The position numbers and the translations under genes are program-made. A stretch of 64,000 nt of DNA from Candidatus Omnitrophota bacterium (GTDB taxonomy: Bacteria; Omnitrophota; Omnitrophia; Omnitrophales; Aquincolibacteriaceae), in the NCBI GenBank assembly GCA_016930235.1, contig JAFGHI010000025.1, positions 16,437-80,436 on the forward strand. The letters run 5' to 3'. Positions 38,069-61,657 of this stretch are shown piece by piece; the stretch's first letter is position 1; every line of letters begins with the position of its first letter. The notes under the pieces were generated by a model that did no database searches, was not told the DNA's origin, and was given only the letters and a program-made list of their open reading frames with translations.

Positions 38069-38240
38069 ATCCTCTTTTCGCGATCGCTTGATTCCCGTTT
38101 CAAACTACAAATGACATAGTCTAGCGGAAAACATTTCATTCGCAATGCTTTCTTCAATCTCCATCCGTACCCACTTCCCTGCCTCTATCCTCTTAAGCTT
38201 TCCCTTGACAATTTCTCCTCGTTTCGCTATTTTCCGGGTC

Positions 38241-39029: not shown

Positions 39030-39072
39030 GCACATGTTTTATCGTGGCGCTTAAAATCAAACCATCGAATTC

Positions 39073-41576: not shown

Positions 41577-41616
41577 AGCGTCTTCCTTTTATTGAGCCCG
41601 CCATTTTGGCGGATGT

Positions 41617-41782
41617 AAAATCCGAATCTCGAATTTCGAAGCACAAAACAAATACGAATATCGAAATTCAAATAAGGCAAACAAAAGATCTGTGTCCTAT
41701 GCCCTTCGTACCTTGTTTTTTTCTTTCCTATTTCGAATTTTGATATTTCTTCGAATTTCGGGATTCGCGCTTCGGATTTCCC
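41617..41782. mobile_element. Family-1 miniature element, copy G (35 kb away from the other copies)
   Basis: Arms aaaatccgaatctcgaatttcgaagcacaaaacaaatacgaatatcgaaattcaaataagg and ctatttcgaattttgatatttcttcgaatttcgggattcgcgcttcggattt. It abuts the methyltransferase stop at 41788. Confidence 0.55.
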
Positions 41783-41787
41783 TGTGC

Positions 41788-42483: not shown

Positions 42484-42486
42484 GTC

Positions 42487-45112: not shown

Positions 45113-45769
45113 CTAAACGGTCCCCTTATTCTCCTCGTAAGCCCTCAAAACACTATCTCCTCTTATCACTTTGGGAGCATAAGTAACTAAACGGGGATCC
45201 TGGGGCCACCCTTGCGGGATTTTGCCGCCCCGAAAGAGATCGATTAAATCTGGAATCATGGAAGCTGCGAGAACGGCCGTTTTTTGAATCACCCTATTTT
45301 CTGTATCGCTTTCGGAAAGCGGCAGGGATCGCTGCAGAAGAATGTCACCTGCATCCAATTCCTCGGTAAGGTAATGGATGGAAACGCCTGTCTCCTTTTC
45401 TTTATTCTTGACGACGGCATAAAACGGACATGGCCCACGATACTTCGGCAGCAGAGAAGGATGGATATTCACAATTCCAAATTTCGGAATGTTAATGATT
45501 TGCCTGGGTACGATCTGGGCGAATGTTGCAACAATGATCAGATCGGGTTCCAGCGTTTTGATCAAATCAACCGAATTTAAAATTTTTTCGCCAGAACAGG
45601 TGATTTTCATTCGCTTGCATAAATCGACCAATGCTTCTTCCTCGTAATAAGGAAACTTGTTCTTGTAAATCGTCGTGAAAACAGCCGTAACCCAAACATC
45701 GGGGATATTAAGCAAAGCAGGAAGCACCGTATTTCCAAAACCCGTCAGACTGAACAAAATAATTTTCAT
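45113..45769 (-). CDS. Formyltransferase (Fmt N-terminal catalytic domain only; sugar N-formyltransferase candidate)
   Basis: IVNIHPSLLPKYRGPCP...ETGVSIHYLTEELDAGDIL. It lacks the Fmt C-terminal tRNA-binding domain. Confidence 0.75.
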   Translation of the reverse strand: MKIILFSLTGFGNTVLPALLNIPDVWVTAVFTTIYKNKFPYYEEEALVDLCKRMKITCSGEKILNSVDLIKTLEPDLIIVATFAQIVPRQIINIPKFGIVNIHPSLLPKYRGPCPFYAVVKNKEKETGVSIHYLTEELDAGDILLQRSLPLSESDTENRVIQKTAVLAASMIPDLIDLFRGGKIPQGWPQDPRLVTYAPKVIRGDSVLRAYEENKGTV

Positions 45770-45787
45770 GGCGGATATCCTCTTTCC

Positions 45788-46498
45788 CTAGCCCAATTTT
45801 TTAATCGCTTTTGCCGGAACCCCAACCGCAACAACGTGCGGCGGAACATCCTTTGTAACGACACTCCCGGCTCCTACAATGGCACCCGATCCGATGGTAA
45901 CCTTTTTCAGAATAACCGTTCTCGCTCCGATCCACGCATTCGATTCAATCCGGATGGGTCCGTGAATTTCCCCATGCATGCTAATTTGTCCCGTAGAAGA
46001 ATCCACTCGATGATCTGCATCAATGAGGAAAACGCCGGGTCCGATGATCACATGGTCCTCAATACTAAGATCTTTCCCGCCGATCCAGCAATCCCGGGCA
46101 ACCCATACTTCTTTCCCGATCCGTGAATTTCCCAAACTGGAAATCTGAGAATTTTTCAATAGCGATAAACGTTCCCCGATTGTCAAATGTCCTTCAACAA
46201 CAATCTGTGATTGGGCGCCAATAAAAGAAGAATCACCGACCACAAGTTCTCCGTCGGAAACGAAAAAGGAACTTCCCTCTTCAATGACCACGTTGCTGCC
46301 GATGATCGTCTTCTTAGCACCACGCAGAGAGATATATCCCGTAACGATCGAACCGCGCCCGAAAGCTCTGAAACGGCGCCGGTAATAAGCAGACCAAAAG
46401 ATTTTTTTTAGTCGGAAGAGTATTTTCTCCAAAACACCCAAAATCCCATCGGATTCATGCAACGTCTTAAGTTTGCTCATATTTTTGTCATTCCCCAA
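45788..46498 (-). CDS. Left-handed beta-helix (hexapeptide-repeat) acetyltransferase
   Basis: Repeated [LIV]G.....[IV] hexapeptides. IGARTVILKKVTIGSGAIVGAGSVV. Confidence 0.8.
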   Translation of the reverse strand: MGNDKNMSKLKTLHESDGILGVLEKILFRLKKIFWSAYYRRRFRAFGRGSIVTGYISLRGAKKTIIGSNVVIEEGSSFFVSDGELVVGDSSFIGAQSQIVVEGHLTIGERLSLLKNSQISSLGNSRIGKEVWVARDCWIGGKDLSIEDHVIIGPGVFLIDADHRVDSSTGQISMHGEIHGPIRIESNAWIGARTVILKKVTIGSGAIVGAGSVVTKDVPPHVVAVGVPAKAIKKLG

Positions 46499-46527
46499 TG
46501 TGCGTTTTTAAAATTGTGTGTATGAAT

Positions 46528-47586
46528 TTATTCGACCAAATCCCAACTTACCGGAATCCCGCGCTTCACATCCAATCTCACTTTCCGGCCGACGATCTCC
46601 TTCAAATATTTCGGAGCCAAACCGTCGGATGGCCTTATCGAACGGATATCCTCCGGAACAATGCAAGATCCTTTGCGGATATCCCGAGCAAAGAACAAAG
46701 AACGTCTGTAACGTTTATACGGTTTCTCATCTTCACTTAACTCATAACGAATCGATCCCACGGCCTCATGAGCAGCCTTGGATTCATCAACAAGAAGTTT
46801 TAACTCCGAAGGTTCGAGCGCATAAAAGTCATCCAAACCGCGATCCTTTCTGCTGAGAGTAAAGTGGCGTTCGATCAAAACAGCACCGAGTGCAGTTGCA
46901 GCGAGCGAGGCCCCAATACCCACAGTATGATCGGAAAACCCAGTCAAAACATGAAACGACTCCGCGAGATGATTCATGATCTTCAAATTGCTCAAACCGG
47001 CTGGAGAGGGATAGACCGTGGAACATCTCAAGAGGACAAGATCGCAGGGACCCACTTCCCGCGCGGTCTCCACCGCTTCCTTGATCTCATCAAAAGAGGC
47101 CATACCCGTCGACATAATTAAGGGTTTTCCTGTCCTTGCGCAGCATCGAATCAGTTCTAGATCCACGAGTTCACAGGATGCGATTTTGTAGGCAGGCGCA
47201 TCAAGCTTTTCAAGGAAATCAACCGCTGTCGAATCAAAAGGTGAACTAAAAACAGTGATTCCGATCTTTTTCCCAAGGTCGAAAATTTCTTTGTGCCATT
47301 CCCACGGCAAAGATGCCCGTTGGTAAAGTTCAAATAAGGACTGCCCCGCCCATGGATTGTCATTCGATACCCTAAATCGGGGATGATTGCTACGCATTGT
47401 GATCGTTTCCGCAGTAAATGTCTGCAACTTGACTGCGTGCGCACCTGCCTTCTGGGCCGCTTCGACAATTTGCAGGGCCCTTTTTAATGATCCGTTATGA
47501 TTTGCAGACATTTCTGCCACAATCATCGGCGGATGCGAAGGTCCGACCTTGTGATCACCGATTTGAATATCCCCTAAAGATATCAC
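46528..47586 (-). CDS. NeuB-family nonulosonic acid synthase (pseudaminic/legionaminic acid synthase-like)
   Basis: IGDHKVGPSHPPMIVAEMSANHNGSLKRALQIVEAAQKAGAHAVKLQTF, with a C-terminal SAF domain. Confidence 0.85.
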   Translation of the reverse strand: MISLGDIQIGDHKVGPSHPPMIVAEMSANHNGSLKRALQIVEAAQKAGAHAVKLQTFTAETITMRSNHPRFRVSNDNPWAGQSLFELYQRASLPWEWHKEIFDLGKKIGITVFSSPFDSTAVDFLEKLDAPAYKIASCELVDLELIRCCARTGKPLIMSTGMASFDEIKEAVETAREVGPCDLVLLRCSTVYPSPAGLSNLKIMNHLAESFHVLTGFSDHTVGIGASLAATALGAVLIERHFTLSRKDRGLDDFYALEPSELKLLVDESKAAHEAVGSIRYELSEDEKPYKRYRRSLFFARDIRKGSCIVPEDIRSIRPSDGLAPKYLKEIVGRKVRLDVKRGIPVSWDLVE

Positions 47587-47619
47587 TCAAATTCCCCCGA
47601 TTCGATAAGATCAGAAGTT

Positions 47620-48510
47620 TTAGGTTCGCACCGCGTAGGCAATGACCTGTCTTCCGAGATTCTGCTCGGCGAGCGATTGATAAAAACGCCTGAGTTCCCT
47701 CTGCCTACCGAGTTTCCGCATATTATTTTCAAAAGCCATTCGGCGTTCGTGGCATTGCCTTCCCAGATTTCCATCGCCAACATAGTTGTCTCCAAACAAC
47801 AAAAAAAGTTCCATCGGGAAAGAGGATTCGACAAGCCGAACCGAAAAACCTGTACCTTCAAGAAGTTTTTTTAACGAATCTGCGCTGAAGTAATTAAGAT
47901 GCCCCGGCGGAGCGACCCACCATTCCCCCAAATGATGCAGTTCTTTGGCACAAATCTGAAATACATTGAATTCGTTTGGAACGTCGATCGCCAAAACACC
48001 ACCCGGCTTAAGAACTTTCTTATAGATTTCTTCCAGAACGGTCACGGGATCAGCGAAATGTTCCAGAACGTTTAAAAGGGTTACGATATCAAAACGCTTA
48101 TCACCGAAAACCGCCATTTCTTCCATGCCCGCGGTGACGACATTCAATCCCTGTTTGCGGCCATACTCGATGGCTTCGGGCGCGGGATCAAAACCATAGC
48201 AGCTCAATCCGGTTTCCCTAAAAAAGAGCAACGCCTGTCCCCAGCCGCATCCGATATCAAGAATACTCTTTGATTTCAGTGACTCACCTAAAATATCGGA
48301 AAAAGCCTGTGTCATATCACTATAATGGCCCTGGTAAAAATCCCTGTCGCGTAATTGAATGTCTAAGGACGAATCATTAAACCGTTTGTAATCACCCGAA
48401 TAAAATTCATCAGTGTAGAATTTCGCTATTTCTTCCGCAGTTGGCGTTGGGTTGATTTGATAAAAACCGTACCGTGGATTTTTCTTCAATTGATAGGATT
48501 TTATATTCAT
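47620..48510 (-). CDS. Class I SAM-dependent methyltransferase
   Basis: ILDIGCGWGQALLFF and VLAIDVPN. Confidence 0.8.
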   Translation of the reverse strand: MNIKSYQLKKNPRYGFYQINPTPTAEEIAKFYTDEFYSGDYKRFNDSSLDIQLRDRDFYQGHYSDMTQAFSDILGESLKSKSILDIGCGWGQALLFFRETGLSCYGFDPAPEAIEYGRKQGLNVVTAGMEEMAVFGDKRFDIVTLLNVLEHFADPVTVLEEIYKKVLKPGGVLAIDVPNEFNVFQICAKELHHLGEWWVAPPGHLNYFSADSLKKLLEGTGFSVRLVESSFPMELFLLFGDNYVGDGNLGRQCHERRMAFENNMRKLGRQRELRRFYQSLAEQNLGRQVIAYAVRT

Positions 48511-48546
48511 TTCGACTCCCTTTCTCTGTTAACACAATGACCGAGC

Positions 48547-49491
48547 TTACTGTCTTCTCGGCTTGCAGTTGGTAAAAATCTCATATGCCATAAAATTTCC
48601 TCGCCAGTCGTGGTCGTCGTACATTTCAAGCGCAGCATGTGCGAGATCGTAACTTTTTTCGTCTCCATCCTTCAACAAAGGTGGCATGGGTTCCCAAAGA
48701 GAAAAACGCTTATCTTTGACCTCGAAACCGTAAGAAAGCAAATGCTTTTCTATCGTCAAAGGATTGTGCAATATCACCAGGTTTTTGTCCCGCAAGGAAT
48801 GGGCCCTGACAACCGGTTCTTCCGGATGGGTAATGAGTTGACGAAAACGAGAGACGGCTTTCTCCGGATCCACGTACTGCTCAATCGGTTTGAATGTTAG
48901 GACATTTCTTTTAAAAAAATCGACGGTATACCGGTTGAAGGACCAGACATCGAAAAGTTCATTCGTGAAGGTTACAACGAAACGGCCCGAGGGCTTCAAA
49001 ACTCTTCTGACCTTTCGGTAAAACTTCCGTTCCTCTTCCCGGTTCAAATAACGAACCAAGCCGGCCGCGGTTACAAAATCCAGGGAATTGGATCTGAATC
49101 GATCGAGAAAAGACAGATCAGCGCAAACTGCGCGCTCGGCGTTCAAATCAGATTTTTTAAGAAAGTCTTTTGCTTGTCTGATCATGTTGTCACTGTAATC
49201 AAAACCATAAGCATCATGGCCAAGTTGCAAAAGCCGTACAAGCAAATAGCCCGTTCCACATCCGACATCAACAATTCGATATTTCCTATGGTTCGAAATC
49301 GCTTCCAAAAACATTCGAAACCGGTGCATGGACTGGCGGTCTTCTTTGCGCTGGATATCCTCAAGCTGTTCCCCTTTGTAAAAATCCGCATACCATTTTG
49401 CCCAGTTATCGAACATTTTGATTTTTTGTCTCTTTTTAGCCTGACAAACGGATTTTACCTTTTTTCTATTCACTTTCGTTAATGCGCTCAT
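48547..49491 (-). CDS. Class I SAM-dependent methyltransferase
   Basis: IVDVGCGTGYLLVRL. Confidence 0.8.
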   Translation of the reverse strand: MSALTKVNRKKVKSVCQAKKRQKIKMFDNWAKWYADFYKGEQLEDIQRKEDRQSMHRFRMFLEAISNHRKYRIVDVGCGTGYLLVRLLQLGHDAYGFDYSDNMIRQAKDFLKKSDLNAERAVCADLSFLDRFRSNSLDFVTAAGLVRYLNREEERKFYRKVRRVLKPSGRFVVTFTNELFDVWSFNRYTVDFFKRNVLTFKPIEQYVDPEKAVSRFRQLITHPEEPVVRAHSLRDKNLVILHNPLTIEKHLLSYGFEVKDKRFSLWEPMPPLLKDGDEKSYDLAHAALEMYDDHDWRGNFMAYEIFTNCKPRRQ

Positions 49492-49495
49492 TAAA

Positions 49496-50233
49496 TCATC
49501 CTTTCAGATTGGTTGTATCAAATGTTGTTTTATCTGCGATATAATTTCCTGTTTTAACATAATGGGAAGCGGCTTCCCATCCGATATTAGCAATAACATC
49601 CAGAACCGACAAAAAACCGACGAATTTTTGAACATTTTTTTGAGGATATTCCCCCGGAATATAATTTTGAAATTGCAGACGGATGCATGAATGTTGAAAC
49701 GCCCCATCGTCCATGAGGTAATCACGAGAACCCAAAGGGCTCAAATATTCGTCACACGAGAAATGTCGGCAAATCGCAAGAAGCCTCTCCGAACGGGATC
49801 CCCCGATATCTAGCGCGCTTGATCTTGTAAATGTTTTCGCTAAACCAAGGCGTTCCGCAAGAGCCACAATGATCCTTATGTTCAAATCCGCCAACCGATT
49901 CGTCGAAGCATCCGCAATGATCTCAGTCACAAACGAAAATTCCTGGCCGTACGGGTGCTTGGAAAATTCTTGCGTAATGAGTCGGCAATGTTTTTCTCTC
50001 CAGCGCTGATGATCATCCAACCCTATCGTCATAATCAAGTCATTGAGGCCGGAGCGGACCGCTGGCACGGTTAGCCACTGCGGTTTCCCTTTCACAAGCA
50101 CTCGGTTGCGGTTCTGCCATGATGTTTTTTTATACTGCACGTCATCGAGGAAAACGAACGTATCCGACGATGCAATCAAATTAAAATAGCCTGCCCAAGG
50201 CAGATAAGTCGGCTGCATAATGACGCATCGCAT
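49496..50233 (-). CDS. WbqC-like family protein
   Basis: MRCVIMQPTYLPWAGYFNLIASSDTFVFLDDVQY. Typical WbqC N-terminus. Confidence 0.75.
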   Translation of the reverse strand: MRCVIMQPTYLPWAGYFNLIASSDTFVFLDDVQYKKTSWQNRNRVLVKGKPQWLTVPAVRSGLNDLIMTIGLDDHQRWREKHCRLITQEFSKHPYGQEFSFVTEIIADASTNRLADLNIRIIVALAERLGLAKTFTRSSALDIGGSRSERLLAICRHFSCDEYLSPLGSRDYLMDDGAFQHSCIRLQFQNYIPGEYPQKNVQKFVGFLSVLDVIANIGWEAASHYVKTGNYIADKTTFDTTNLKG

Positions 50234-50235
50234 AT

Positions 50236-51285
50236 TCAGTTACCTAAATGGTTGAGCAAATAATCCACAACCCGTTCAGTCCCCCTTCCGTCGACAGCCT
50301 GAAAACTCAAATCCCGCATCCGGCTTAATTGTCCGGTCTCCATCACAAATTTCCTGAACTGATTCAAAAACTCATTTTCGGTTATGGTTTCCGCGCTGCC
50401 GAAATATTCACAAAATCCGCTTTCTTTTAACCGCTTGAGGATAGGGATCTGATTTTGCGAAATCGACAGATAGGCACCGACGAGCCCCATGCACGCACGT
50501 TCCCATGTTGTCGTCCCCGGTGCGCCCACGGCCATGTTGCAAGGCAACATCGTCGATGCCATATTCTGCACGTCCTGCTGAAACCGGAATCGCGTTTCGT
50601 AAGACCTCTGCAAGCTCATGAGATCTTTCGGATAACGATAAGCTTTGCTCACTACAGCCGTTATCTCGATATCACTCAAAGATTCAAGAAGAAGCTTCGA
50701 AAAGCGGACCGTATGATTTCGTGTATCCATACCTCCAAAGAAAAGATGAATGTGGCGTCTATCCCACGTACGAGCGTTCGATCGAATGCATGCTCGTTCC
50801 TTCCGGAATTCGCTTTTCAACAAAACATATTTCGAACCAAAAAGCCCATGGCAATGTCCAGAGATCAAACCGCAGTATCTCGTACCATCTTCTCCGAACG
50901 TTGAATCAATTATGAGATCCCCTTCATGACGCCGGTTTGCGAGATCATCAATGATAATGATCTTACCGACACAATCCTTCACACGGTTTTCGCCCCGATG
51001 ATCCCATCCATAGTGATCAACAATGAGCCATTGCGCATCGCACCCTTCGCTCTCCAGTAACCGTCTGGTTTCTTCTGCATCCGCCGCCCAATTCGAAGCC
51101 GATATCAAATAAAATCGAAAGCCATGTTTCTGGAGCATTTGACTAGTATACCCTTCAGAATCATTGGTAATAAAAAAAACTTCGGCTCCGATATCTCTTA
51201 CAGCCTCTGCTAAAACCGTACAACGGATCAAATGCCCTGTCCCTATACGATTGGATGCATCGACTCTGAATGCAACCTTCAACAT
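50236..51285 (-). CDS. pseG: PseG-like UDP-sugar hydrolase (GT28-fold)
   Basis: MLKVAFRVDASNRIGTGHLIRCTVLA matches the PseG N-terminus (RADAS..IG.GH..R...LA). Confidence 0.7.
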   Translation of the reverse strand: MLKVAFRVDASNRIGTGHLIRCTVLAEAVRDIGAEVFFITNDSEGYTSQMLQKHGFRFYLISASNWAADAEETRRLLESEGCDAQWLIVDHYGWDHRGENRVKDCVGKIIIIDDLANRRHEGDLIIDSTFGEDGTRYCGLISGHCHGLFGSKYVLLKSEFRKERACIRSNARTWDRRHIHLFFGGMDTRNHTVRFSKLLLESLSDIEITAVVSKAYRYPKDLMSLQRSYETRFRFQQDVQNMASTMLPCNMAVGAPGTTTWERACMGLVGAYLSISQNQIPILKRLKESGFCEYFGSAETITENEFLNQFRKFVMETGQLSRMRDLSFQAVDGRGTERVVDYLLNHLGN

Positions 51286-52040
51286 AATGTCTCTTTGGCG
51301 CGGGACTTTGCATACCCCTCATTCCGTCCAACATGTTCGTTGATTTTCGTCATCTCAGGATGCCTCTTCAGCCAGTTGAGCACATCCTGCCAATCAAATT
51401 CCGGATTTCTGAAGTATAACGCTTCGTAAATTTTCGTGATCAACTCAAAATCCTCAGATTCGTCAACGGTCCAGCGCAAGCGTGAATAATCAATCGGCGA
51501 TTTAAAATTGCCAATTCGAAATTTCTCTTTATGATGATAAATAAAGGCCGTAACATGCTCGCGTTCTGATTTCAAGGCGGCTTCCTTCCACATACGTTTA
51601 AGACATGAATAGGTTAAAACTTCCGCATCAAGCCCGTCGGGATAGGTTGGCTCAAAAGCATTGCTTGTATAATCGTAGCCTCCACGCAAATGAAACTCGA
51701 TAATCTGATCAATCAGACCGGGATCCGCCAGAGGACAATCGCCTGTCAGACGCACGATCTGCCGCGCCTGGGTTTTCTGTGCCGCCTGATAAAACCGGTC
51801 CAGAACATCATCCAGAGATCCCCGGAAGCAATCGATGCTTTCTTTTTGACAAATTTTTTCGATTGGATCATCATCCTGGAGCTCGCTCGTCGCGACGATC
51901 AACTTGTCTATCCGGCGCGACCTTTTCAAGCGTTCAATTTGGCGAAGCAGCATGGGAACACCCAGCAAAGGTTTCAGAACTTTCTCGGAAAGCCTGCTGG
52001 ATGATGTTCTAGCCTGAAGAATACCGAGAATCATGAACAT
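51279..52040 (-). CDS. CMP-nonulosonic acid synthetase / acylneuraminate cytidylyltransferase-family protein (PseF/SpsF-like)
   Basis: ILQARTSSSRLSEKVLKPLLGVPML and RLTGDCPL. Confidence 0.75.
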   Translation of the reverse strand: MFMILGILQARTSSSRLSEKVLKPLLGVPMLLRQIERLKRSRRIDKLIVATSELQDDDPIEKICQKESIDCFRGSLDDVLDRFYQAAQKTQARQIVRLTGDCPLADPGLIDQIIEFHLRGGYDYTSNAFEPTYPDGLDAEVLTYSCLKRMWKEAALKSEREHVTAFIYHHKEKFRIGNFKSPIDYSRLRWTVDESEDFELITKIYEALYFRNPEFDWQDVLNWLKRHPEMTKINEHVGRNEGYAKSRAKETLC

Positions 52041-52079
52041 TTTCAGCTCCCCATTGAGGCACCTTCCGAAAAAACAATA

Positions 52080-53147: not shown

Positions 53148-53181
53148 AAATTCCCTCCTAACTAATTTTTTAACTAGTTTT

Positions 53182-55014
53182 TCATAGATGAGACTGTTTC
53201 AAATGAAAAGCAATCACATCTTCCGGAGCCGCCTGCTGTCCCCTATTCAAGCAATCCCGGTAGGCTCCTTCACGATCCCCGATTGCTAACGTTTCAACGT
53301 CTTCGCACAACCGTTTAATCCAATTTGCAAGTGAACGCTTATCCTCCGCATAATGAAGCACCTGATATTTCCGATATTCGACAAGTAATGGGCTCCATTC
53401 GTCATGAAGCCAGATAACGGGTGTTCCCATCGCGAAGCCTTCGACGGCAAGGGTCGAACCATAGACGATCAGGAAATCGGCAGCCTTGGCTAATAGGAGT
53501 GGGTCATAATCCTCTACAATGATCAGCCGCTTTTCCAATTGGTGATCACTGATCCATTTCTCGCTGTAATTTCTGACCTCACAGTCCGATTTCCTTTTGA
53601 TCTTGATTAGAAATTGAACATCGGGAATTGAAGAAACCACTTGCAGCACTTCATAAAAGAATTCTTTCCATTTTTGTTCAAAAAACCTTAAACGGGAATA
53701 TTTGATCGGAGGAAATGCGATCACCGCCAATTTATTTCTACAATCGAGTTTCATATCCCGAACAACACGCTCCCGGATTTCTCTCTTATTCATATGAAGA
53801 TAAGCCGTATACCGGGTACAGCCGGACACTATAATTTTTTCTTCAGGAACTCCCCACGCTGCAAGTTTTACCTTTTGTGCAGTGCCCCAGACAAATATAA
53901 TATCGGCTGTTACTGGCGCGAATCCGCTCTTTTCTCCAAGAGCTCCGTGGCATTCCACAAAGGATCGGACACCGCAAAGACGGGCGATCTGGCACGCCGC
54001 ATTCTTGGTCGGGGCAACGTCCTCGTCCAGCAAGATTGAACGAATCGCCTTTTGACCGTTGAATAGTCGAAACAAGGCATCGATATCATAAAGGAGTTTC
54101 GGCAGCATCGGCCGGAATAACGATTCCAATCCAAGGCCTAAAAGCTTTCCTGCATCGAATCCATCAAAACCACTATTGGTAAATGGATTTTGGGTTTTCA
54201 GTCTTTCGATAAATTCCGAGGCTAAAGCCTTATATTTATGATCAGCTGAATGCTGGTAATTGTATTGATAAAATCCAAATCCTTTCAAGCGCGATTGAAG
54301 AAAAAGCCTAGGTGCTTTCACGTCGGTATAAAAAGCAACATTTCTCCAATTGAGTTTTTCAGAAACTCTGCGGACTTTCGAGAAATCTGAAAAGAGCAGG
54401 TATTCCAAAGAGCCCTGCGTCTTTGGACCGATTCTGGAAGGCCAAAAGCCTAGACCTCTTGACCAAGACATTCCATTGCCCGTCCGGTATCGATTTGTTT
54501 GGGAGGATTGGATATCGATCATCCTGGTCACCGACTTCAGCGAACTATTTTCATAAATCAACCGCGTCGGAACATTCACCTCGCTATCTTCGATGCAAAA
54601 ATCGGCGGGACCATATTTTTCCGCTATTTTCGATAATACAGCATAGCGGATTGCGAAATCGTTGGCGTAATTGAAAAGCTTTTTCTTAAAACACCAAAGG
54701 AGATCAACGCCCCGGTAAGAAAAGAATTCGCGAAATGCATTATTTTCAATCTGTTCGAGAAAAGCCTCATAAACTCGATAATAAATCTCCTGATACTGGG
54801 CCAGATCCAAATAATCACTCGGAAAAGAATCTGCGTTGTTCGGAAAAAACGAAAAAACATGATCGAAATTTTCCTTTATCTTCGGAATCCGATGCTCGAC
54901 GATCAAGATTCGATTTCGCCTATCCGTTTTCTCATTGAATGATGATTGAACCAACTCTTTCGAGCTCATCTTGTCCTCAACCTTGCTCTCCTTTAAAATT
55001 CGTTGCGAAAACAA
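53182..55014 (-). CDS. Large (610 aa) soluble protein of uncertain family inside the nonulosonic-acid block; candidate glycosyl/glycerophospho-transferase (TagF/KpsC-like or Maf-like)
   Basis: No family signature is certain. A weak resemblance of LIVYGSTLAVEGFAMGTPVIWL to TagF-type C-termini is a low-confidence guess. Confidence 0.3.
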   Translation of the reverse strand: MFSQRILKESKVEDKMSSKELVQSSFNEKTDRRNRILIVEHRIPKIKENFDHVFSFFPNNADSFPSDYLDLAQYQEIYYRVYEAFLEQIENNAFREFFSYRGVDLLWCFKKKLFNYANDFAIRYAVLSKIAEKYGPADFCIEDSEVNVPTRLIYENSSLKSVTRMIDIQSSQTNRYRTGNGMSWSRGLGFWPSRIGPKTQGSLEYLLFSDFSKVRRVSEKLNWRNVAFYTDVKAPRLFLQSRLKGFGFYQYNYQHSADHKYKALASEFIERLKTQNPFTNSGFDGFDAGKLLGLGLESLFRPMLPKLLYDIDALFRLFNGQKAIRSILLDEDVAPTKNAACQIARLCGVRSFVECHGALGEKSGFAPVTADIIFVWGTAQKVKLAAWGVPEEKIIVSGCTRYTAYLHMNKREIRERVVRDMKLDCRNKLAVIAFPPIKYSRLRFFEQKWKEFFYEVLQVVSSIPDVQFLIKIKRKSDCEVRNYSEKWISDHQLEKRLIIVEDYDPLLLAKAADFLIVYGSTLAVEGFAMGTPVIWLHDEWSPLLVEYRKYQVLHYAEDKRSLANWIKRLCEDVETLAIGDREGAYRDCLNRGQQAAPEDVIAFHLKQSHL

Positions 55015-55015
55015 T

Positions 55016-55948
55016 CTAAGACAAGGTCCACTTTCTTGGATCCGTCAAGTTGGAATCCTCGATCCGGATATCTTCTAACTCTTTCCGGATAGGGTGAAAT
55101 TCGTGGATTCGTTTGAGAGCGTTGACATTGTCAACAACTTCCGCCCTCGATTTCATTCCGATTAGCGTTGAATGAATTCCATCGCAGGTGACCGCAAAAA
55201 GCAGTGCCATTTCGCTGATGCTGAATCCTCGCTTCAAGGCAAGTCTCTCAAGGGATTTCTTGTAATCCAGCATGCCACCCAACTCGTCCGGCAATTGATC
55301 CATAGCCGCGGGAATCATTCCCTTCAAAAATACCGATCGACTGATCACGCCGATATTCAATTTCCGGAATGCCGGCAAAAATAGATCGAATGAATTATCG
55401 AAAATATTATAAGGAATTTGAATAAAATCAACTTCTTTTCCGGGATTTTTGATAATGCCCTCCACTTCCCGGGGTTCATAAACAGAAACACCGAAAAAAC
55501 GGATCCGCCCCATGTTTTTGGCCCGGTGAATTTCCTCCCAAAAAATATCCGAATCAGCCAGGCTTCCTATTGATTGGTGCAGTTGAAGAATGGGAATACA
55601 ATTCAAATCAAGCGACTCCATCGATTTTTCTATCGACTTCCAGATCCACTTTTTGAGCTTGTCTGGTTCTTGCTCCATCCCCTTTGGAATGACTTCCAGT
55701 TTTGTCGCGACAAGGAAGTCCGCATCTTGATGTCTCCTCTTAAAATTGCCGATTTTATTTTCGCTGTCGCCATAGCCCCGTGCCGTATCAATTAAATTAA
55801 TCCCCTCTGCGAGACTCGCCTCAAGCACAGCATCGGCTTCATCCTGAGATATTCGCTTCGTCAATCCGTAATCCATTCCGAATTGAACTGTTCCAAGGCC
55901 GATTATTGAAATTCGAATATCCGTTAACGGAACATGCTGGTAAATCAT
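55016..55948 (-). CDS. Aldo/keto reductase
   Basis: IGLGTVQFG...DTARGYGDSE. Confidence 0.85.
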   Translation of the reverse strand: MIYQHVPLTDIRISIIGLGTVQFGMDYGLTKRISQDEADAVLEASLAEGINLIDTARGYGDSENKIGNFKRRHQDADFLVATKLEVIPKGMEQEPDKLKKWIWKSIEKSMESLDLNCIPILQLHQSIGSLADSDIFWEEIHRAKNMGRIRFFGVSVYEPREVEGIIKNPGKEVDFIQIPYNIFDNSFDLFLPAFRKLNIGVISRSVFLKGMIPAAMDQLPDELGGMLDYKKSLERLALKRGFSISEMALLFAVTCDGIHSTLIGMKSRAEVVDNVNALKRIHEFHPIRKELEDIRIEDSNLTDPRKWTLS

Positions 55949-55955
55949 CGATTTA

Positions 55956-57308
55956 TCAATTTAACCTCATGAAACCCGAATGGCAAACGGGTCCTTCAAG
56001 GATTCTTTCAAGCGAACCACTTTTTAAACAGGCAGCGATTTTCCCAAAAACACCGTTCGCCGTTTCCAGATATCGTGTAATAATTTGGGGCGTATGAGCA
56101 TCCGATACAAAGATGACCGTTGAGGCAAGAAATCCCTTTTTCAACATTTCCTGTGTAAAAATGGTCTTAACCAAAAGAGGACTGCTTTCCTGGATGAGAA
56201 TCGTCGGAACACACGTAAGACCGCCAATTTCAATCTTCAAACCATGGCTTGAGAATATTTTTTTTAAGCCCGAACGAATTTGTTCTCCCCGCACCTGGAT
56301 ACGGTCCACAACTTGATGATTCTCGAATTGGTCAATTACAGCAAGAGCAGCTGCGAAACCAACTCGCTCGGTCCAATAAGTACTGCTGATAAATGTCCTC
56401 TGAGCTGCTTCCATAATGTCTTTCTTGCCGATCACTGCTGCGATCGGATAACCATTCCCCAGTGCTTTTCCCAGAACCACGATGTCAGGCTGCAAATCAT
56501 ACAAGACATGCATGCCACCTGTTCTTAACCGGAATCCGGATGTGACTTCATCGTAAATGAGAACGGCCCCAATACGTCTGGCAATTTTTTGCACGGCCCG
56601 CAAAAATTCAAGATCAATGTCTTTTGTCCGCTGAACCTCCATCATGATGACTCCAATATCTTCATTTTTTTTTAGGATATCTTCTAAACTCCGGATTTTT
56701 CCATAATAAAATGGAATAGAGGTTCCTTTTAAAGCCTTGGGAACCCCAATCGGTTCCAATCCCGGCAAGAGCTGCTCACGCAGATTTTCAGGATCTTCAA
56801 GATTCGCGGCTAAATACCAATCATTCCAGCCATGGTATCCGCAAAACGCAACTTTATCACGGCCCGAGAAAGCCCTGCCGATCCTGATTGCTAGCGCACA
56901 TGCCTCCCCACCTGTTCTTGCAAATCGAACCGAATCTGCCCACGAATGCAGGTCGATCAACTTTTCCGCAAGAACGACTTCTTCATAACAGTTCAAAGTG
57001 CTCATGTTTCCCAGTTTAATTGCTTGTCTGACTGCTCGGTTCACCGCCTGGTTGGCATATCCCAAAACACAACAACCCACTCCCATCAAACTCATATCAG
57101 TATATTGAACATTGTCGAGATCCCAAACCTGAACGCCCTTGGCTTTTTTGAAATAACTTGGCCAATAATCCGGCAAAAACATCTCAGGACGTTTTGAAAG
57201 TAACTGGTTTCCACCAGGAATAACCTTCTTTGCTCTACGCCATAACTCAATCCCCTGACAACTAGGCATCATACTGCCGGCTCCTTGTTTATTTTTCTTG
57301 CTCATCAA
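55956..57308 (-). CDS. Class-III PLP aminotransferase (glutamate-1-semialdehyde aminomutase-like)
   Basis: YDEVTSGFR and LGKALGNGYPIAAV (probable PLP-Lys region). Confidence 0.8.
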   Translation of the reverse strand: MMSKKNKQGAGSMMPSCQGIELWRRAKKVIPGGNQLLSKRPEMFLPDYWPSYFKKAKGVQVWDLDNVQYTDMSLMGVGCCVLGYANQAVNRAVRQAIKLGNMSTLNCYEEVVLAEKLIDLHSWADSVRFARTGGEACALAIRIGRAFSGRDKVAFCGYHGWNDWYLAANLEDPENLREQLLPGLEPIGVPKALKGTSIPFYYGKIRSLEDILKKNEDIGVIMMEVQRTKDIDLEFLRAVQKIARRIGAVLIYDEVTSGFRLRTGGMHVLYDLQPDIVVLGKALGNGYPIAAVIGKKDIMEAAQRTFISSTYWTERVGFAAALAVIDQFENHQVVDRIQVRGEQIRSGLKKIFSSHGLKIEIGGLTCVPTILIQESSPLLVKTIFTQEMLKKGFLASTVIFVSDAHTPQIITRYLETANGVFGKIAACLKSGSLERILEGPVCHSGFMRLN

Positions 57309-57416
57309 TAGCGAAATTCCCGGTTAACTGCTCCCCATACAAAAAAGAGTGAAGCATCGTTTTGTGAAAACTTTTAAGATTTCCAACAACAACTGCACCC
57401 ACCTCATCCATCGAAT

Positions 57417-58958
57417 TCATACCCGAGTCGATAAAGAATAAACAATTGCTCGCGGTGAATCGTCGACTCGTTCGTAATTGTCTTCCAAATACCTTTTCAA
57501 CATCGGCTCTCGATTGAGCTGATGCCGATCCGAAACTGCGAAATATTCAGCACCTTGCGATTTATAAAGTTCCAACTGATTGATTGAATTTGATTCTAAT
57601 TCGTCCTTGAAACGAACTGCGCGCTTCTTGCCAGAGCTGATTTGAAAAGCCCAGCCATCACGTTCGGTATAATACAAAAAAGATGTCGAGCTGCCATGAG
57701 ATGCAATCACCCGGCTAGCCTCTGGGACAATCTCTTTGACTTCCGACGAAGCCTCTAAAACATATCGGTCTTCGGCTGGTATGATTAAAAGCGGTGAAAT
57801 AGAAAACCGTATAGATAAGAGAATATTAAAAAATATAACGCTCGCTCCAATCATTCGCTTAAAGTGGAAACGGCGTAACAGATTAAATATTGATAAGCCG
57901 GCAAGAACAGCCAAAAAAGGAACCAAAGGTAAATAATAATACTCGAACTCAATAAATTTTCTGGGAGCGATCCAAAAACCAAGCGAGAATGCAAAAATGC
58001 TAAACCACAGGAAAGCAATTATATTTCTTCGGCCGCGCTGCATCATGAATACTGAAATAATCACAAAAACTATGCCGACTGGGGTTAAAAGCTTGTTCAT
58101 CATAATGTAAAAAACCGGCTTATAATAATCAATCCCATAAGCCATCTTGCTTCGGGTGGGATCATCGAGAACAAAGACACGTAAATTATCCAATAGACTG
58201 CTTTCAACATCGAGCGCCATTCCCTTATAGTACGCATATACATGCCATGCTATCGGAAGTGAAGATGAAATGAATATCAAAAGAAGACTATCCCTTATTT
58301 TGGAAATTCTCGGAGGACATCGTAAGAGCATCAGGAGAAGCGGCGGCATTAATAAAAGTGCGTAATAAATTCTCAAACTGATCATCACAGCAAAAAACAG
58401 TCCGCTGAAAATAAAATATCTTTTGGATGAATCCCAATATCCTTTTAAAAATAAACTATAGGCAAACAGGCCCGCTGTCAAAGCTGGGATTTCCAAAAGA
58501 AACGCTTGACCATAGATAACGGTTAGCGGAGAAAAAACATAAAAAAAAATGACCCATCCGACAACTTCTTTGTCTGGAAATATTCTTCGGAGAATGAAAT
58601 AGAAAGGAATCAGTGACAAAAAAAATAAAAAGGCTGAAAACCCGCGGCCCGATACTTCAATACCCAAACCGGTAATCTTACAAATTATTGCCACGATTGT
58701 CATGGTAAAGGGAATATCACCCAAGAATAAACGGGGCCGGCCATGCGCTAAAAAACGCATAGCGGGATGAAGGGGATCAATTCCTGTTTTTAACCATTTT
58801 TGAACAACCGTTGCATAATCCGTCTGATGTTGAGCAAAATTTCCAAGGAAAGGCTGTCCAATGCCGATTAAGTGAAGAGTTGTACCCAATAAAAGGACAA
58901 CTAAGATTAGAACAACGTTTGGTCGTAGAATATTTATTCCTTTTCGAGATTTAATCAT
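57417..58958 (-). CDS. GT-C-fold (ArnT/PMT-like) polytopic membrane glycosyltransferase with a C-terminal soluble domain
   Basis: 513 aa, about 11 TMs. Its C-terminal domain FSISPLLIIPAEDRYVLEA...HGSSTSFLYYTERDGW is shared with the partial gene at 63508+. Confidence 0.5.
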   Translation of the reverse strand: MIKSRKGINILRPNVVLILVVLLLGTTLHLIGIGQPFLGNFAQHQTDYATVVQKWLKTGIDPLHPAMRFLAHGRPRLFLGDIPFTMTIVAIICKITGLGIEVSGRGFSAFLFFLSLIPFYFILRRIFPDKEVVGWVIFFYVFSPLTVIYGQAFLLEIPALTAGLFAYSLFLKGYWDSSKRYFIFSGLFFAVMISLRIYYALLLMPPLLLMLLRCPPRISKIRDSLLLIFISSSLPIAWHVYAYYKGMALDVESSLLDNLRVFVLDDPTRSKMAYGIDYYKPVFYIMMNKLLTPVGIVFVIISVFMMQRGRRNIIAFLWFSIFAFSLGFWIAPRKFIEFEYYYLPLVPFLAVLAGLSIFNLLRRFHFKRMIGASVIFFNILLSIRFSISPLLIIPAEDRYVLEASSEVKEIVPEASRVIASHGSSTSFLYYTERDGWAFQISSGKKRAVRFKDELESNSINQLELYKSQGAEYFAVSDRHQLNREPMLKRYLEDNYERVDDSPRAIVYSLSTRV

Positions 58959-59043
58959 GAAAGTCGTTGTGCCAACATTTCAATTGCATATTGATTTTCA
59001 TTTTCTACAATCTAAATAACTTTTCGAATTCGCATAAGCCCAA

Positions 59044-60240
59044 CTAAAACACAACCGGTTTTTTCCGTTTCTTGCTTTTATTAAAAACACCATCAAGTAT
59101 TTCCTTGACTGCGGCAATAACCAACTGAACATCCCTTGACGTTAACCTTGGATACATCGGCAGACTTACAACTTCCTGGTAATACCGTTCGGTTTTAGGA
59201 TGCCTAAGGCTGGACTTCGCTAGATGCCTTTGGTAATAAGGATGATGCGTGATAGGAATATAATGAACCTGTGACATGACCCCGTACTCTTGTAAAGCTT
59301 CATAAAACCGCCGGCGATGAATGGAAGTTTTCTTTAAGTTGAGACGGAATAAATAGAGATGCCACGCATGTTTTCGATCGGGATAATGGAGTTTCGGTAA
59401 GATCACCTTTTCGCCCAAACTTTGGAGGGCTTCGCCATACTGTTCGGCGATTTCCCGTCTTCGCTTCAAAAAAAAGTCAAGCTTTCGTAACTGTGATAAT
59501 CCTAAAGCCGCCTGAAAATCCGTAATACGATAATTAAAACCGATATTGTTCATCTGATAAAACCAGTTTCCCACCCGCCTCCGAGCCGATTGAGGACGCC
59601 CGATCCCGTGATGCCTCATCTGTAACATCTTCTTGTAAAAATCCCTATTGTTGGTCGTAATACAGCCACCTTCACCGGTCGTAATGTGCTTAACGGGATG
59701 AAAGCTGAAGACAGTTATATCGGAATACTGGCAGGAGCCTATCTTTTTCCCGCGGTACTCAGCTCCGAGGGCATGACATGCATCCTCGATCACAATCAGA
59801 TCTCGACGGCGGGCAATCGCGGCGATCTCCTTGAGATCGACCGGTAATCCCGCAAAATGAACCGGAACAATCGCCTTCGAGCGTTTCGTAAGCTTCTTTT
59901 GGATTTCTTCAGGATCAATATTGACTGTGTCATAATCAATATCGGCGAAAATCGGTGTGGCTCCGGTAAAGACAGCAGCGTTGGCGGTTGCAAGAAAAGA
60001 CATGGGAGTCGTAATCACCTCATCGCCTTTTCCCATTCCCGCAACACAATAAGCCAAATGAAGACCCGCCGTTCCGCTCGAAACGGCAACGGCATATTTC
60101 GCTCCGCAATATTTCGCAATGGCTTCTTCAAATTCCCTAATTTTGGGTCCTTGAGACAGCCAATCGGATTTGAGAACTTTTACGACTTCATTGATATCAG
60201 ACTGATCGATCCATTGCCGCCCATATGGAATTTTCTTCAT
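59044..60240 (-). CDS. pseC: PseC-like DegT-family aminotransferase
   Basis: IPYGRQWIDQSDINEVVKVLKSDWLSQGPKI is a PseC-type N-terminus. The start was set at MKKIPY. Confidence 0.8.
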   Translation of the reverse strand: MKKIPYGRQWIDQSDINEVVKVLKSDWLSQGPKIREFEEAIAKYCGAKYAVAVSSGTAGLHLAYCVAGMGKGDEVITTPMSFLATANAAVFTGATPIFADIDYDTVNIDPEEIQKKLTKRSKAIVPVHFAGLPVDLKEIAAIARRRDLIVIEDACHALGAEYRGKKIGSCQYSDITVFSFHPVKHITTGEGGCITTNNRDFYKKMLQMRHHGIGRPQSARRRVGNWFYQMNNIGFNYRITDFQAALGLSQLRKLDFFLKRRREIAEQYGEALQSLGEKVILPKLHYPDRKHAWHLYLFRLNLKKTSIHRRRFYEALQEYGVMSQVHYIPITHHPYYQRHLAKSSLRHPKTERYYQEVVSLPMYPRLTSRDVQLVIAAVKEILDGVFNKSKKRKKPVVF

Positions 60241-61249
60241 TTTTTGTTTCTTCCTCATTGATCATGGTTTCGAGTTCCGGCACACTCAGCTGCCATTCTT
60301 GACCATCACTGCGGTAACCTTCAAAATCAGGTCCTAATGGCTTGGGTAAATCTTTCCGGGTCTGAGAAATAACTTTGGGGTAAGTAATGTAACGGTCTTT
60401 AAATTCATACGTAAAAGGGCCATCGTCGGATGCAATTAAAACCTCATGGAGTTTTTCACCGGGCCGTATCCCGACAACCTTCTGACGGCATCCCGGACAA
60501 ACAGCCTTGGCCAAATCGGTTATACGGATACTCGGTAATTTTGGAATAAAGATTTCTCCACCGACCATCTCTTCAAGTGATTGGATGACAAAATCCACTC
60601 CCTGGGGCAATGTAATCCAGAATCGTGTCATTCTTTCATCCGTAATAGGAACTTCTCCTTTGACCCTGCATTCCTTAAAAAAAGGCACAACGCTTCCTCT
60701 GGAGCCAAAAACATTTCCATAACGAACTACTGAAAATTTTGTCCCGAGAGGAGAATAGTTGTTCCCGGCGACAAACATCTTTTCGGCACAAAGCTTTGTG
60801 GCACCGTAAAGGTTGACCGGATTGGCGGCCTTGTCCGTGCTGAGAGCAAGCACCTTTTCAACGCCGTTATCGATCGCCACATTGATCACATTCTCTGCGC
60901 CAATAATGTTGGTTTTTACCGCTTCAAAAGGATTGTACTCGGCCGTCGGAACGATTTTTAAAGCCGCTGCGTGAACGATAATGTCGACGTTCTCAAAAGC
61001 ACGGTGCAACCGGTCAGCATCACGGACATCTCCGATAAAAAAACGAACCCGCCGTTCCGGGTCGTGGAGCTTCTGTTTCATCTCATATTGTTTCATCTCA
61101 TCGCGGCTGAATACGATGAGTTTTTTAGGGAGGCGTGTTTTTAACATCGTCTGAACAAACTGCTGTCCGAAGGAGCCCGTCCCTCCCGTTATCAAGACAA
61201 CTTTGCTTTTCCAATCAATCCCCATGTCGTAGCCCTCACTTTTCGTCAT
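60197..61249 (-). CDS. pseB: PseB-like UDP-GlcNAc 4,6-dehydratase (SDR, inverting type)
   Basis: VLITGGTGSFG...DVRD...YGATKLCAEK (Y-x3-K). Confidence 0.85.
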   Translation of the reverse strand: MTKSEGYDMGIDWKSKVVLITGGTGSFGQQFVQTMLKTRLPKKLIVFSRDEMKQYEMKQKLHDPERRVRFFIGDVRDADRLHRAFENVDIIVHAAALKIVPTAEYNPFEAVKTNIIGAENVINVAIDNGVEKVLALSTDKAANPVNLYGATKLCAEKMFVAGNNYSPLGTKFSVVRYGNVFGSRGSVVPFFKECRVKGEVPITDERMTRFWITLPQGVDFVIQSLEEMVGGEIFIPKLPSIRITDLAKAVCPGCRQKVVGIRPGEKLHEVLIASDDGPFTYEFKDRYITYPKVISQTRKDLPKPLGPDFEGYRSDGQEWQLSVPELETMINEEETKNEENSIWAAMDRSV

Positions 61250-61529
61250 TAATCTTCTGTTTCGCTTCGCTCACCACGTCGTCTTCGTGAAGCCATCGTC
61301 TTCCCTTGTTATAAATCTTCCCCACCCGGTCCTCAAGTTTCGGAGAAACCATCCTTAAGATTTCTTTTCCCAATATCCTGTATTGTTTACCCACTTTAGC
61401 CGCCCGGATAATACCCTTTTTGATTAATCGGGTCATCGTACTCGAGCTGACCTTAAGGATTTTCTGCGTCTCTTCCAGCGTATAGATCTCGTTTTCATTC
61501 ACGATCATAGGAAACCTCACAAACTGCAT
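61236..61529 (-). CDS. Small excisionase-family HTH DNA-binding protein (paralogous in type to 12754..12960)
   Basis: YTLEETQKILKVSSSTMTRLIKKGII. It is the first gene of the pse operon. Confidence 0.55.
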   Translation of the reverse strand: MQFVRFPMIVNENEIYTLEETQKILKVSSSTMTRLIKKGIIRAAKVGKQYRILGKEILRMVSPKLEDRVGKIYNKGRRWLHEDDVVSEAKQKINDEK

Positions 61530-61657
61530 TCGTAAATTATTAAACTAAGGGAAGGATTATAATCTACTCAATGCAACATGTCAATAGACGTCATCAGTAG
61601 TCATTGGTAGTCAATATCAGCATAACTCATAGGATAATTTGCCGTTCGATCATTAAC

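Follow-up and report, generated by a model that had tools for sequence, protein, structure and literature searches.

Pseudaminic acid (Pse) is a sialic-acid-like sugar found on flagella, pili, capsules and O-antigens, and it influences motility, immune recognition and phage attachment. In the canonical pathway of Campylobacter jejuni and Helicobacter pylori, UDP-GlcNAc is converted to 6-deoxy-L-AltdiNAc, then to the nonulosonate and finally to the CMP-sugar. Here, we analyzed a 64-kb stretch of DNA (the window) from a chromosomal contig of a Candidatus Omnitrophica metagenome-assembled genome (MAG), in which a block of 16 genes encodes the same PseB, PseC, PseG and PseI enzymes and follows the same logic. 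It differs from the canonical pathway in that the GNAT-type acetyltransferase PseH is absent, that the activating enzyme is SpsF-like and not a member of the PseF equivalog family, and that eleven further genes are interleaved. We consider it probable that the block represents, in rearranged form and at the head of a Wzx/Wzy locus, an "extended pseudaminic acid" operon that is conserved and has spread horizontally. The Pse core and the swap of acetyl for formyl, for which PseJ sets the precedent, are known, and SpsF-type activation has been assumed for other clusters, whereas the conserved extension is biochemically uncharacterized.

By the literature's own account, most of the enzymes that diversify Pse have yet to be identified (PMC11040635, PMC5378307). 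The formyltransferase PseJ (6ci2/6ci4) is a characterized one and is credited with the route to the natural derivative Pse5Ac7Fo (PMC11040635); there, as in the window, an enzyme of the Fmt superfamily occurs in a PseH-less Pse cluster and a 7-N-formyl product is predicted. The window enzyme, however, matches PseJ with 36 bits and Met-tRNA formyltransferase with 96 bits, and was probably recruited independently. The Bacillus subtilis sps genes (SpsC-G) and the flagellar Pse clusters of Clostridium share the cytidylyltransferase type, assumed to be the nonulosonate activator, and SpsF-type genes served to identify pseF in Clostridium via homology to the B. subtilis genes (PMC13317340). The descriptions of these clusters that were consulted mention no radical-SAM enzyme (SAM, S-adenosylmethionine), class-III aminotransferase, aldo/keto reductase or WbqC protein. 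Tailoring at the level of the nucleotide sugar by enzymes encoded between core genes is found in C. jejuni with PseA and PtmG (amidine synthases) and PtmH (an N-methyltransferase). Formylated and methylated CMP-nonulosonic acids (CMP-NulOs) have been seen by mass spectrometry in Ca. Kuenenia stuttgartiensis (bioRxiv 10.64898/2026.04.20.719630), the cluster of which is of the legionaminic acid (Leg) type and uses a deacetylase, whereas that of the window is of the Pse type. The nearest solved relatives of the radical-SAM enzyme and the class-III aminotransferase of the window belong to 2-deoxystreptamine and aminoglycoside tailoring (BtrN and C-6' aminotransferases), and the logic of oxidizing C-OH to C=O followed by transamination would carry over. 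Compared with BtrN, the window enzyme carries an additional domain of ~70 aa at the N terminus as well as more conserved cysteines toward the C terminus, and its substrate would be a nonulosonate instead of a cyclitol.

A pseudaminic acid core joined to a conserved module

Core genes were scored against NCBIfam equivalog models with curated cut-offs and the other genes with Pfam (Table 1). The first-pass annotation of this DNA had proposed a pathway built on PseB, PseC, PseG and a NeuB/PseI-like synthase. All four genes are present on the minus strand, and each scored above its Pse equivalog cut-off. For PseC, placed at 59044..60240, the gene itself stood but its start did not: position 60240 marks an ATG inside the open reading frame (ORF), which starts at 60258. 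When placement among Pse, Leg, sialic acid and Kdo enzymes was considered, synthase and hydrolase both proved to be of the Pse type, and the Leg and Neu models stayed under cut-off. By these family models, the locus is confirmed as a real pseudaminic acid gene cluster. Pfam and NCBIfam also bore out every named domain call (hexapeptide, formyltransferase, two SAM methyltransferases, WbqC, radical-SAM/SPASM, aldo/keto reductase, class-III aminotransferase). Two genes inside the block had not been listed, one for a 610-aa protein that belongs to no Pfam family (ORF610) and one for a 513-aa PMT_2/GT-C protein.

Five enzymes of the block, the radical-SAM/SPASM enzyme (rSAM), the class-III aminotransferase (AT3), the aldo/keto reductase (AKR), the WbqC-family protein and the 296-aa methyltransferase (MT23), form a module that recurs elsewhere. 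Neighborhoods of rSAM relatives from named genomes and metagenomes were scored with the window proteins, which gave 38 non-redundant loci, many of them on truncated contigs. The rSAM gene was accompanied by genes for MT23 in 33 loci, PseG and PseI in 28 each, WbqC in 27, PseC and a PseH-like GNAT in 25 each, the cytidylyltransferase (CTP3) in 24, AKR and AT3 in 23 each and PseB in 19. The usual operon order is PseB-PseC-AKR-CTP-AT3-PseG-MT-rSAM-GNAT-WbqC-PseI, from which the window copy departs by rearrangement and interruption. Among the hosts are Geobacteraceae, Syntrophaceae, Desulfonema magnum 4be13, Desulfovibrio, Rhodocyclaceae, Acetobacterium, Elusimicrobia, Verrucomicrobia, another member of the Omnitrophota and the archaeon Candidatus Methanoperedens, and gene order is kept across Geobacteraceae, Desulfonema magnum, Acetobacterium, Elusimicrobia, Omnitrophota and Candidatus Methanoperedens. 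In Acetobacterium, where Maf is also present, and in a Rhodocyclaceae MAG, the operon adjoins flagellin genes, and the flagellin glycosylation islands that carry the module hold no other polysaccharide genes. Because the operon abuts flagellin genes, we conclude that AT3, AKR, rSAM, WbqC and MT23 serve the nonulosonate and not another O-antigen sugar.

The earlier assignment of the tailoring genes to the nonulosonate pathway thus holds for these five, which travel with Pse genes in the 38 loci including flagellin islands, but is unproven for the hexapeptide protein and the second methyltransferase (MT-314), which lack a close counterpart in the related loci. The tailoring set had furthermore been called unusually rich. 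Since its bulk is a conserved syntenic operon common to many phyla, this description could not be maintained; the richness belongs to a widespread operon family, and the window is one rearranged member, located among polysaccharide and not flagellar genes. The operon family is therefore of more interest than the window locus alone. We found no published characterization of the rSAM/AT3/AKR/WbqC/MT module in the searchable literature, and its product appears to have been identified by nobody.

Reduced and altered versions of the operon were also encountered. Anabaena azotica has all of it except rSAM, Desulfitobacterium hafniense has only CTP3, PseG, a methyltransferase and WbqC alongside PseB and PseI, with neither AKR nor AT3, and some Desulfocapsaceae-type loci encode rSAM, the methyltransferase and WbqC without AKR and AT3. 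A 430-aa Lactamase_B_2 protein, a further uncharacterized accessory that is absent from the window, is inserted after MT23 in four loci from Sulfuritalea, Elusimicrobia and Anabaena (L021, L029, L031, L080). The Candidatus Methanoperedens sp. MAG (L011) contains a full bacterial-type extended Pse operon with an rSAM of 61% identity, which implies either inter-domain transfer or a binning artefact. Candidatus Binatia (L005/L022) encode a 59%-identical rSAM/SPASM protein at 6372-7436 beside another rSAM/SPASM gene and a HATPase/DUF4325 gene. C10 CMP-ulosonic acids have been reported in Magnetospirillum gryphiswaldense (bioRxiv 10.64898/2026.04.20.719630). A link to these compounds was considered and rejected, as the rSAM of the magnetotactic Rhodospirillaceae LM-1 retrieved no Magnetospirillum homolog when used as a query; its nearest match was 59% identical.

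The rSAM proteins, encoded by the signature gene of the module, form a tight family, almost all with 353-358 aa and 53-62% identity, comprising 155-168 clusters among 5.8 billion proteins. Residues C87, C91 and C94 (the CX3CX2C motif) as well as C283, C302, C347 and C350 do not vary, and C291 is almost invariant; the enzyme therefore combines the radical-SAM motif with the C-terminal cysteine-rich auxiliary-cluster domain of the SPASM-Twitch type. BtrN was ranked as first relative by three methods, at 18-20% identity, and DesII, BlsE and SpeY, like BtrN sugar or cyclitol enzymes, were among the top structural matches. No B12 domain was found. C-methylation by the radical-SAM enzyme, one of the modifications suggested at first, is thus not borne out by an enzyme that lacks this domain and has BtrN-type proteins as its nearest structures. 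For AT3, the best relatives in the PDB are the aminoglycoside C-6' aminotransferases 7lm0/7lld (139 bits), followed by aminopentol aminotransferase and GSAM. The MT23 gene usually lies directly upstream of the rSAM gene in the related loci; a PDB sequence search with MT23 returned nothing informative.

A PDB sequence search found no solved structure for WbqC, and no paper was found that gives the WbqC family a function. Its predicted fold resembles that of class-I aminoacyl-tRNA synthetases and BshC, which were the nearest proteins in a structure search. Look-up of the exact sequence returned one 4-kb Logan contig only, with no added context. Identity of WbqC with the Leg acetamidino synthase PtmG (Cj1324) was rejected, because PtmG has a size of ~45 kDa (PMC8687705) as compared to 225-245 aa for WbqC proteins, and no paper linking WbqC to Campylobacter was found.

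Gene fusions connect the module with CMP activation. The two halves of the "spiro-SPASM" model TIGR04321 match the adjacent cytidylyltransferase and rSAM genes of the window (profile positions 21-227 with 39 bits and 225-505 with 62 bits). The model describes a single polypeptide scoring at least 250 bits, and the two separate genes of the window do not belong to it; by sequence, the pair is a split, distant relative of the spirochaete family. Through the spirochaete fusion, a connection to the flagellar Pse derivative of Treponema denticola may be a lead. Six loci, among them one from Desulfonema magnum, carry CTP3~AT3 fusions of 675-701 aa (L020 at 4742-6847, L025 at 5873-7918, L036, L048, L051 and L054), and GNAT~WbqC fusions of about 435 aa occur in three (L026/L064, L051 and L054). 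A fusion of cytidylyltransferase and AKR has been noted in Vibrionaceae (PMC7371886). This note was the only result when the literature was searched for radical SAM with pseudaminic acid, GSAM-like genes with Pse and AKR in NulO clusters, and the term "spiro-SPASM" appeared in no paper of the searched literature. The fusions suggest that AT3, AKR and rSAM are tied to CMP activation of the nonulosonate.

Proposed replacement of PseH by a formyltransferase

ORF family scans and tblastn searches with four PseH-like GNATs from related loci found no PseH-type GNAT in the 64-kb window. The block does encode a formyltransferase with the folate-site motif HPSLLPKYRG, which matched Fmt, GART, GDP-perosamine formyltransferase, ArnA and PseJ in the PDB. 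Of the 13 loci without a GNAT, five had an Fmt-type gene, as compared to none of the 25 with a GNAT (Fisher p=0.0026), and the order MT-rSAM-Fmt-WbqC-PseI in L025 (Rhodospirillaceae LM-1) and L048 puts the Fmt gene exactly at the usual place of the GNAT. We read the Fmt genes across loci as apparent repeated recruitment of the same solution. N-formylation, which had been listed among the possible modifications, is plausible because Fmt-type genes take the place of the GNAT PseH, and the pathway of the window predicts a 7-N-formyl Pse with moderate confidence.

The hexapeptide-repeat protein has SACOL2570 and the galactoside and maltose O-acetyltransferases (LacA/Maa) as its best PDB relatives (63-84 bits), whereas the sugar N-acetyltransferases QdtC, WlbB and PerB reached only 38-45 bits. 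Because O-acetyltransferases outscored N-acetyltransferases, the protein is likelier to be an O-acetyltransferase, adding an O-acetyl group, than a replacement of PseH.

Predicted chemistry and competing explanations

In the pathway that we propose, the steps of PseB/PseC, PseG and PseI rest on curated family models and those of the formyltransferase, the cytidylyltransferase and AT3/AKR/rSAM on comparative genomics. PseB and PseC would convert UDP-GlcNAc to UDP-4-amino-4,6-dideoxy-L-AltNAc, the 4-amine of which would be formylated by the Fmt-type enzyme in place of the missing PseH, leading to a 5-N-acetyl-7-N-formyl Pse skeleton. PseG would then take off UDP, PseI would condense the sugar with phosphoenolpyruvate to pseudaminic acid and the SpsF-like cytidylyltransferase would yield the CMP-sugar. 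AT3, AKR and rSAM, each of which is fused to that cytidylyltransferase in other genomes, would act at or beside CMP activation. The fusions and the relatives of AT3 suggest that a Pse hydroxyl could be oxidized and then either transaminated or reduced again. With low confidence, the BtrN-like rSAM and/or AKR would oxidize the hydroxyl at C4 or C8, so that transamination would introduce an extra amino group and re-reduction would give an epimer. At the same low confidence, WbqC might catalyze an ATP-dependent ligation or activation on the N-substituent, as judged from its BshC/class-I-synthetase-like fold, and MT23 might add a methyl group. In the window alone, the hexapeptide protein would add an O-acetyl group, MT-314 would introduce another methyl group and the GT-B-like ORF610 would transfer the completed CMP-sugar to the repeat unit.

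Candidate relatives for this last step are the T. forsythia transferases of Pse/Leg derivatives, Tanf_01245 and TFUB4_00887, which have been examined in knockouts and are needed for transfer; BFO_1060 is the homolog from strain FDC 92A2 (PMC5420450). The only family matches of the C-terminal half of ORF610, which lies within the CMP-Pse block, are to the BFO_1060 family (NF046086) and to TIGR04396 (residues 389-574), with Pfam Epimerase_2 at E=0.003. ORF610 differs from the characterized transferases in its length of 610 aa versus about 445 aa, its match to NF046086 covers the C-terminal region only and reaches 39 bits as compared to the cut-off of 200, which places it outside that family, and a PDB sequence search gave no match. 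It may be a CMP-Pse transferase, a candidate held with low confidence.

Taken together, these steps outline a class of nonulosonic acid that would be undescribed, namely Pse with a further amino group at C4 or C8 that might itself be N-acylated or N-methylated, or an epimer generated by the radical-SAM enzyme, to which the window version would add N-formyl and O-acetyl groups. We put this forward tentatively, as a proposal that may well turn out otherwise. If true, nonulosonate biosynthesis would gain its first radical-SAM step, and the WbqC family a first assigned function within it. The interest of the system lies in five uncharacterized enzymes that accompany the Pse core in different bacterial phyla and in one archaeon, in the finding that various genomes encode module enzymes as physical fusions with PseH or the CMP-activating enzyme, and in the recurrent exchange of PseH for a formyltransferase, and it would increase if the product proved to be a new class of nonulosonate. 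For new nonulosonate chemistry the operon family offers concrete candidates and cultivable sources, with the full module in Desulfonema magnum 4be13 and reduced modules without radical-SAM enzyme in Anabaena azotica and Desulfitobacterium hafniense.

Several observations weigh against this interpretation. The CMP-transferase predicted at 51279..52040 is indeed a CTP_transf_3 protein and the only cytidylyltransferase found in the window, but with 24.7 bits it falls far below the cut-off of 205.7 for the PseF equivalog TIGR03584. Among solved structures, PDB 6oew, annotated as "Cytidylyltransferase" (140 bits), comes nearest, followed by KdsB. The matches behind the assignment of ORF610 are likewise sub-threshold. 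The formyltransferase shares only 34-42% core identity with the Fmt proteins of other loci and, because of this low identity and its low score to PseJ, the exchange of GNAT for Fmt is an analogy and not an orthology. A second DegT aminotransferase (25338..26471) could provide the formyl- or acetyltransferase with another amino sugar. The rSAM gene occurs without AKR and AT3 in L015, L017, L040 and L050, and AKR and AT3 occur without rSAM in Anabaena; since each is found without the other, a strict relay from rSAM to AT3 is not obligatory. No Pse genes are present within 10 kb of the Binatia rSAM, which so represents an orphan or differently used copy. Finally, the evidence stops at family membership, and none of the loci in the operon family has a known product.

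The alternative that survives best, though we regard it as unlikely, is a mixed cluster, in which only the conserved module serves the nonulosonate, whereas the formyltransferase, the hexapeptide protein, MT-314 and the GT-C protein modify other sugars of the repeat unit and PseH is encoded elsewhere in the genome. The hexapeptide protein, ORF610, the GT-C protein and the helix-turn-helix (HTH) protein at the start of the block have no counterpart in the 38 related loci, the GT-C gene being a window-specific insertion, and MT-314 matches methyltransferases of these loci only weakly (23-29% identity across roughly one third to one half of its length). The assignment of the hexapeptide protein, MT-314, ORF610 and the GT-C protein to the nonulosonate is therefore unproven. 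The formyltransferase gene lies where the block meets the Wzx gene, Fmt, GART and ArnA rank above PseJ among the PDB matches of its product, a second 4-amino sugar could arise from the DegT protein and many glycosyltransferases are encoded in the same locus. On the other hand, Fmt-type genes recur specifically in GNAT-less Pse operons and in the position of the GNAT, and the 64-kb window yielded neither a GNAT nor a 4,6-dehydratase that could partner the second DegT.

Still less probable, in our view, is an unmodified Pse ring in combination with a separate CMP- or CDP-linked amino-alcohol or amino-acid-like substituent, made by CTP3, AKR and AT3 and attached to the glycan or to Pse, for instance by WbqC. 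The separability of AKR and AT3 from rSAM would fit such a scheme, as would the adenylate-forming, ligase-like fold of WbqC, which is nearest to BshC, a putative Cys:GlcN-malate ligase, and complex N-acyl groups are known on Pse (glyceroyl in T. forsythia, 2-methoxy-4,5,6-trihydroxyhexanoyl in T. denticola). Nevertheless, PF02348 enzymes (KdsB, NeuA, PseF) act on ulosonic acids, the CTP_transf_3 gene is the sole one in these operons, so that Pse would stay unactivated without it, and D. hafniense keeps CTP3 with Pse genes although it has neither AKR nor AT3.

That the rSAM/SPASM enzyme is a peptide or protein maturase (for a ribosomally synthesized and post-translationally modified peptide, or in anSME-like cofactor maturation) and a mere neighbor of the sugar genes is very improbable, given that it adjoins Pse genes in 33-plus loci across phyla in conserved order, that it is fused to a nonulosonate-type cytidylyltransferase in TIGR04321, that gene maps show no conserved small ORF or maturase target beside it and that sugar and cyclitol enzymes are among its top structural matches.

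Transcription and genomic setting of the block

The 16 co-directional genes (45113..61529) overlap or lie at most 108 nt apart, and this spacing together with an upstream sigma-70 consensus supports a single transcription unit. The total of promoter-like sites in the region was not above shuffle expectation, the site upstream of the block being the single perfect match, and the promoter and terminator scans of the region, taken as a whole, were at chance level. The HTH gene overlaps the start of pseB by 14 nt.

The Pse block heads a Wzx/Wzy surface-polysaccharide locus and does not form part of a flagellar island: one locus encodes the flippase, the Wzy-type polymerase/ligase and the initiating phosphoglycosyl transferase, and it is followed downstream of the block by the housekeeping genes UDG, PriA, def and fmt. 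The region 23642..43572 also encodes a CDP-alcohol phosphatidyltransferase, a DUF2079 protein, a carbamoyltransferase, the second DegT aminotransferase, a GmhB-like phosphatase and a glycosyltransferase resembling monogalactosyldiacylglycerol (MGDG) synthase.

Table 1. Features of the pseudaminic acid block and the adjoining polysaccharide locus (window coordinates; GT, glycosyltransferase; PLP, pyridoxal phosphate; EPS, exopolysaccharide).
Feature	Position	Strand	Family match	Remark
Rest of polysaccharide locus	23642..43572	minus (one GT2 gene, 38145..39029, plus)		GT4, GT2 and GT9 transferases, methyltransferase, others
Initiating phosphoglycosyl transferase, WcaJ/EPS-type	27395..28822	minus	TIGR03025 443 bits, cut-off 296	
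Wzy_C	35197..36564	minus	PF04932 86 bits	
Wzx-type flippase	43569..45074	minus	PF01943/PF13440	38 nt downstream of formyltransferase gene
Formyltransferase, 218 aa, catalytic N-domain only (Formyl_trans_N)	45113..45769	minus	PF00551 105 bits	putative PseH substitute
Hexapeptide-repeat acetyltransferase, O-acetyltransferase-like	45788..46498	minus	PF00132	window-specific
PseI, pseudaminic acid synthase	46528..47586	minus	TIGR03586 450 bits, cut-off 340; NeuB 290, cut-off 400	
MT23, Methyltransf_23 methyltransferase, 296 aa	47620..48510	minus	PF13489 100 bits	conserved module
MT-314, class-I SAM methyltransferase, 314 aa	48547..49491	minus	Methyltransf_25/11	
WbqC-family protein, 245 aa	49496..50233	minus	PF08889 211 bits, positions 1-216 of 218	conserved module
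PseG, UDP-sugar hydrolase	50236..51285	minus	TIGR03590 236 bits, cut-off 154	
SpsF-like CTP_transf_3 cytidylyltransferase	51279..52040	minus	PF02348 107 bits	putative CMP-Pse synthetase
Radical-SAM/SPASM enzyme, 355 aa	52080..53147	minus	PF04055 + PF13186	conserved module, signature gene
ORF610, 610 aa	53182..55014	minus	weak matches only	candidate CMP-nonulosonate glycosyltransferase (GT-B-like C-terminal half)
AKR, aldo/keto reductase	55016..55948	minus	PF00248 122 bits	conserved module
AT3, class-III PLP aminotransferase	55956..57308	minus	PF00202 127 bits	conserved module
PMT_2 (ArnT/GT-C-like) glycosyltransferase, polytopic membrane protein, 513 aa	57417..58958	minus	PF13231 27 bits, cut-off 26.1	
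PseC, UDP-4-amino-4,6-dideoxy-L-AltNAc transaminase	59044..60258	minus	TIGR03588 487 bits, cut-off 423; LegC 257, cut-off 420	
PseB, inverting UDP-GlcNAc 4,6-dehydratase	60197..61249	minus	TIGR03589 462 bits, cut-off 408; LegB 61 bits	
HTH_17/excisionase-family DNA-binding protein, 97 aa	61236..61529	minus	PF12728 46 bits; TIGR01764	first gene of the block
Promoter-like TTGACA-17-TATAAT, 12/12 match	61556..61584	minus		~27 nt upstream of first gene

Some further genes of the polysaccharide locus, all on the minus strand, bear on its possible product. A NodU/CmcH-type carbamoyltransferase (344 + 238 bits), followed by a small SxtJ-like protein, at 32726-34972 suggests an O-carbamoylated sugar. 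The second DegT sugar aminotransferase stays under all equivalog cut-offs, its best match being the PseC model with 241 bits, and is adjoined by the gene for the GmhB-like heptose-bisphosphate phosphatase (173 bits, cut-off 178; 24766-26471 for the pair). The CDP-alcohol phosphatidyltransferase and the DUF2079 membrane protein (39073-41576) may point to either a phospho-alcohol substituent or some lipid-linked step.

Shortly ahead of the operon promoter, on its upstream side, a very hydrophobic polytopic membrane protein of 617 aa is encoded at 61658-63511 on the minus strand; it belongs to no Pfam or NCBIfam family and appears GT-C-like by eye. AT skew is unusually high (0.27) around 62-64 kb. 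At the other end of the window, a second EPS-type export locus extends over 0.7-12.8 kb. Three paralogous genes for "23S rRNA-intervening sequence proteins" (PF05635, bAvd-like four-helix bundle; 6334-6792, 8307-8672 and 11065-11502, minus strand) are interspersed there among the export genes for Wza, GNVR/Wzz, AAA_22 and a ParA-like ATPase. Between the two polysaccharide loci (13297-16041), a plus-strand gene for a 516-aa protein with a weak Asn-synthase (PP-loop) match is accompanied by a DUF1016 and SNase nuclease-like gene.

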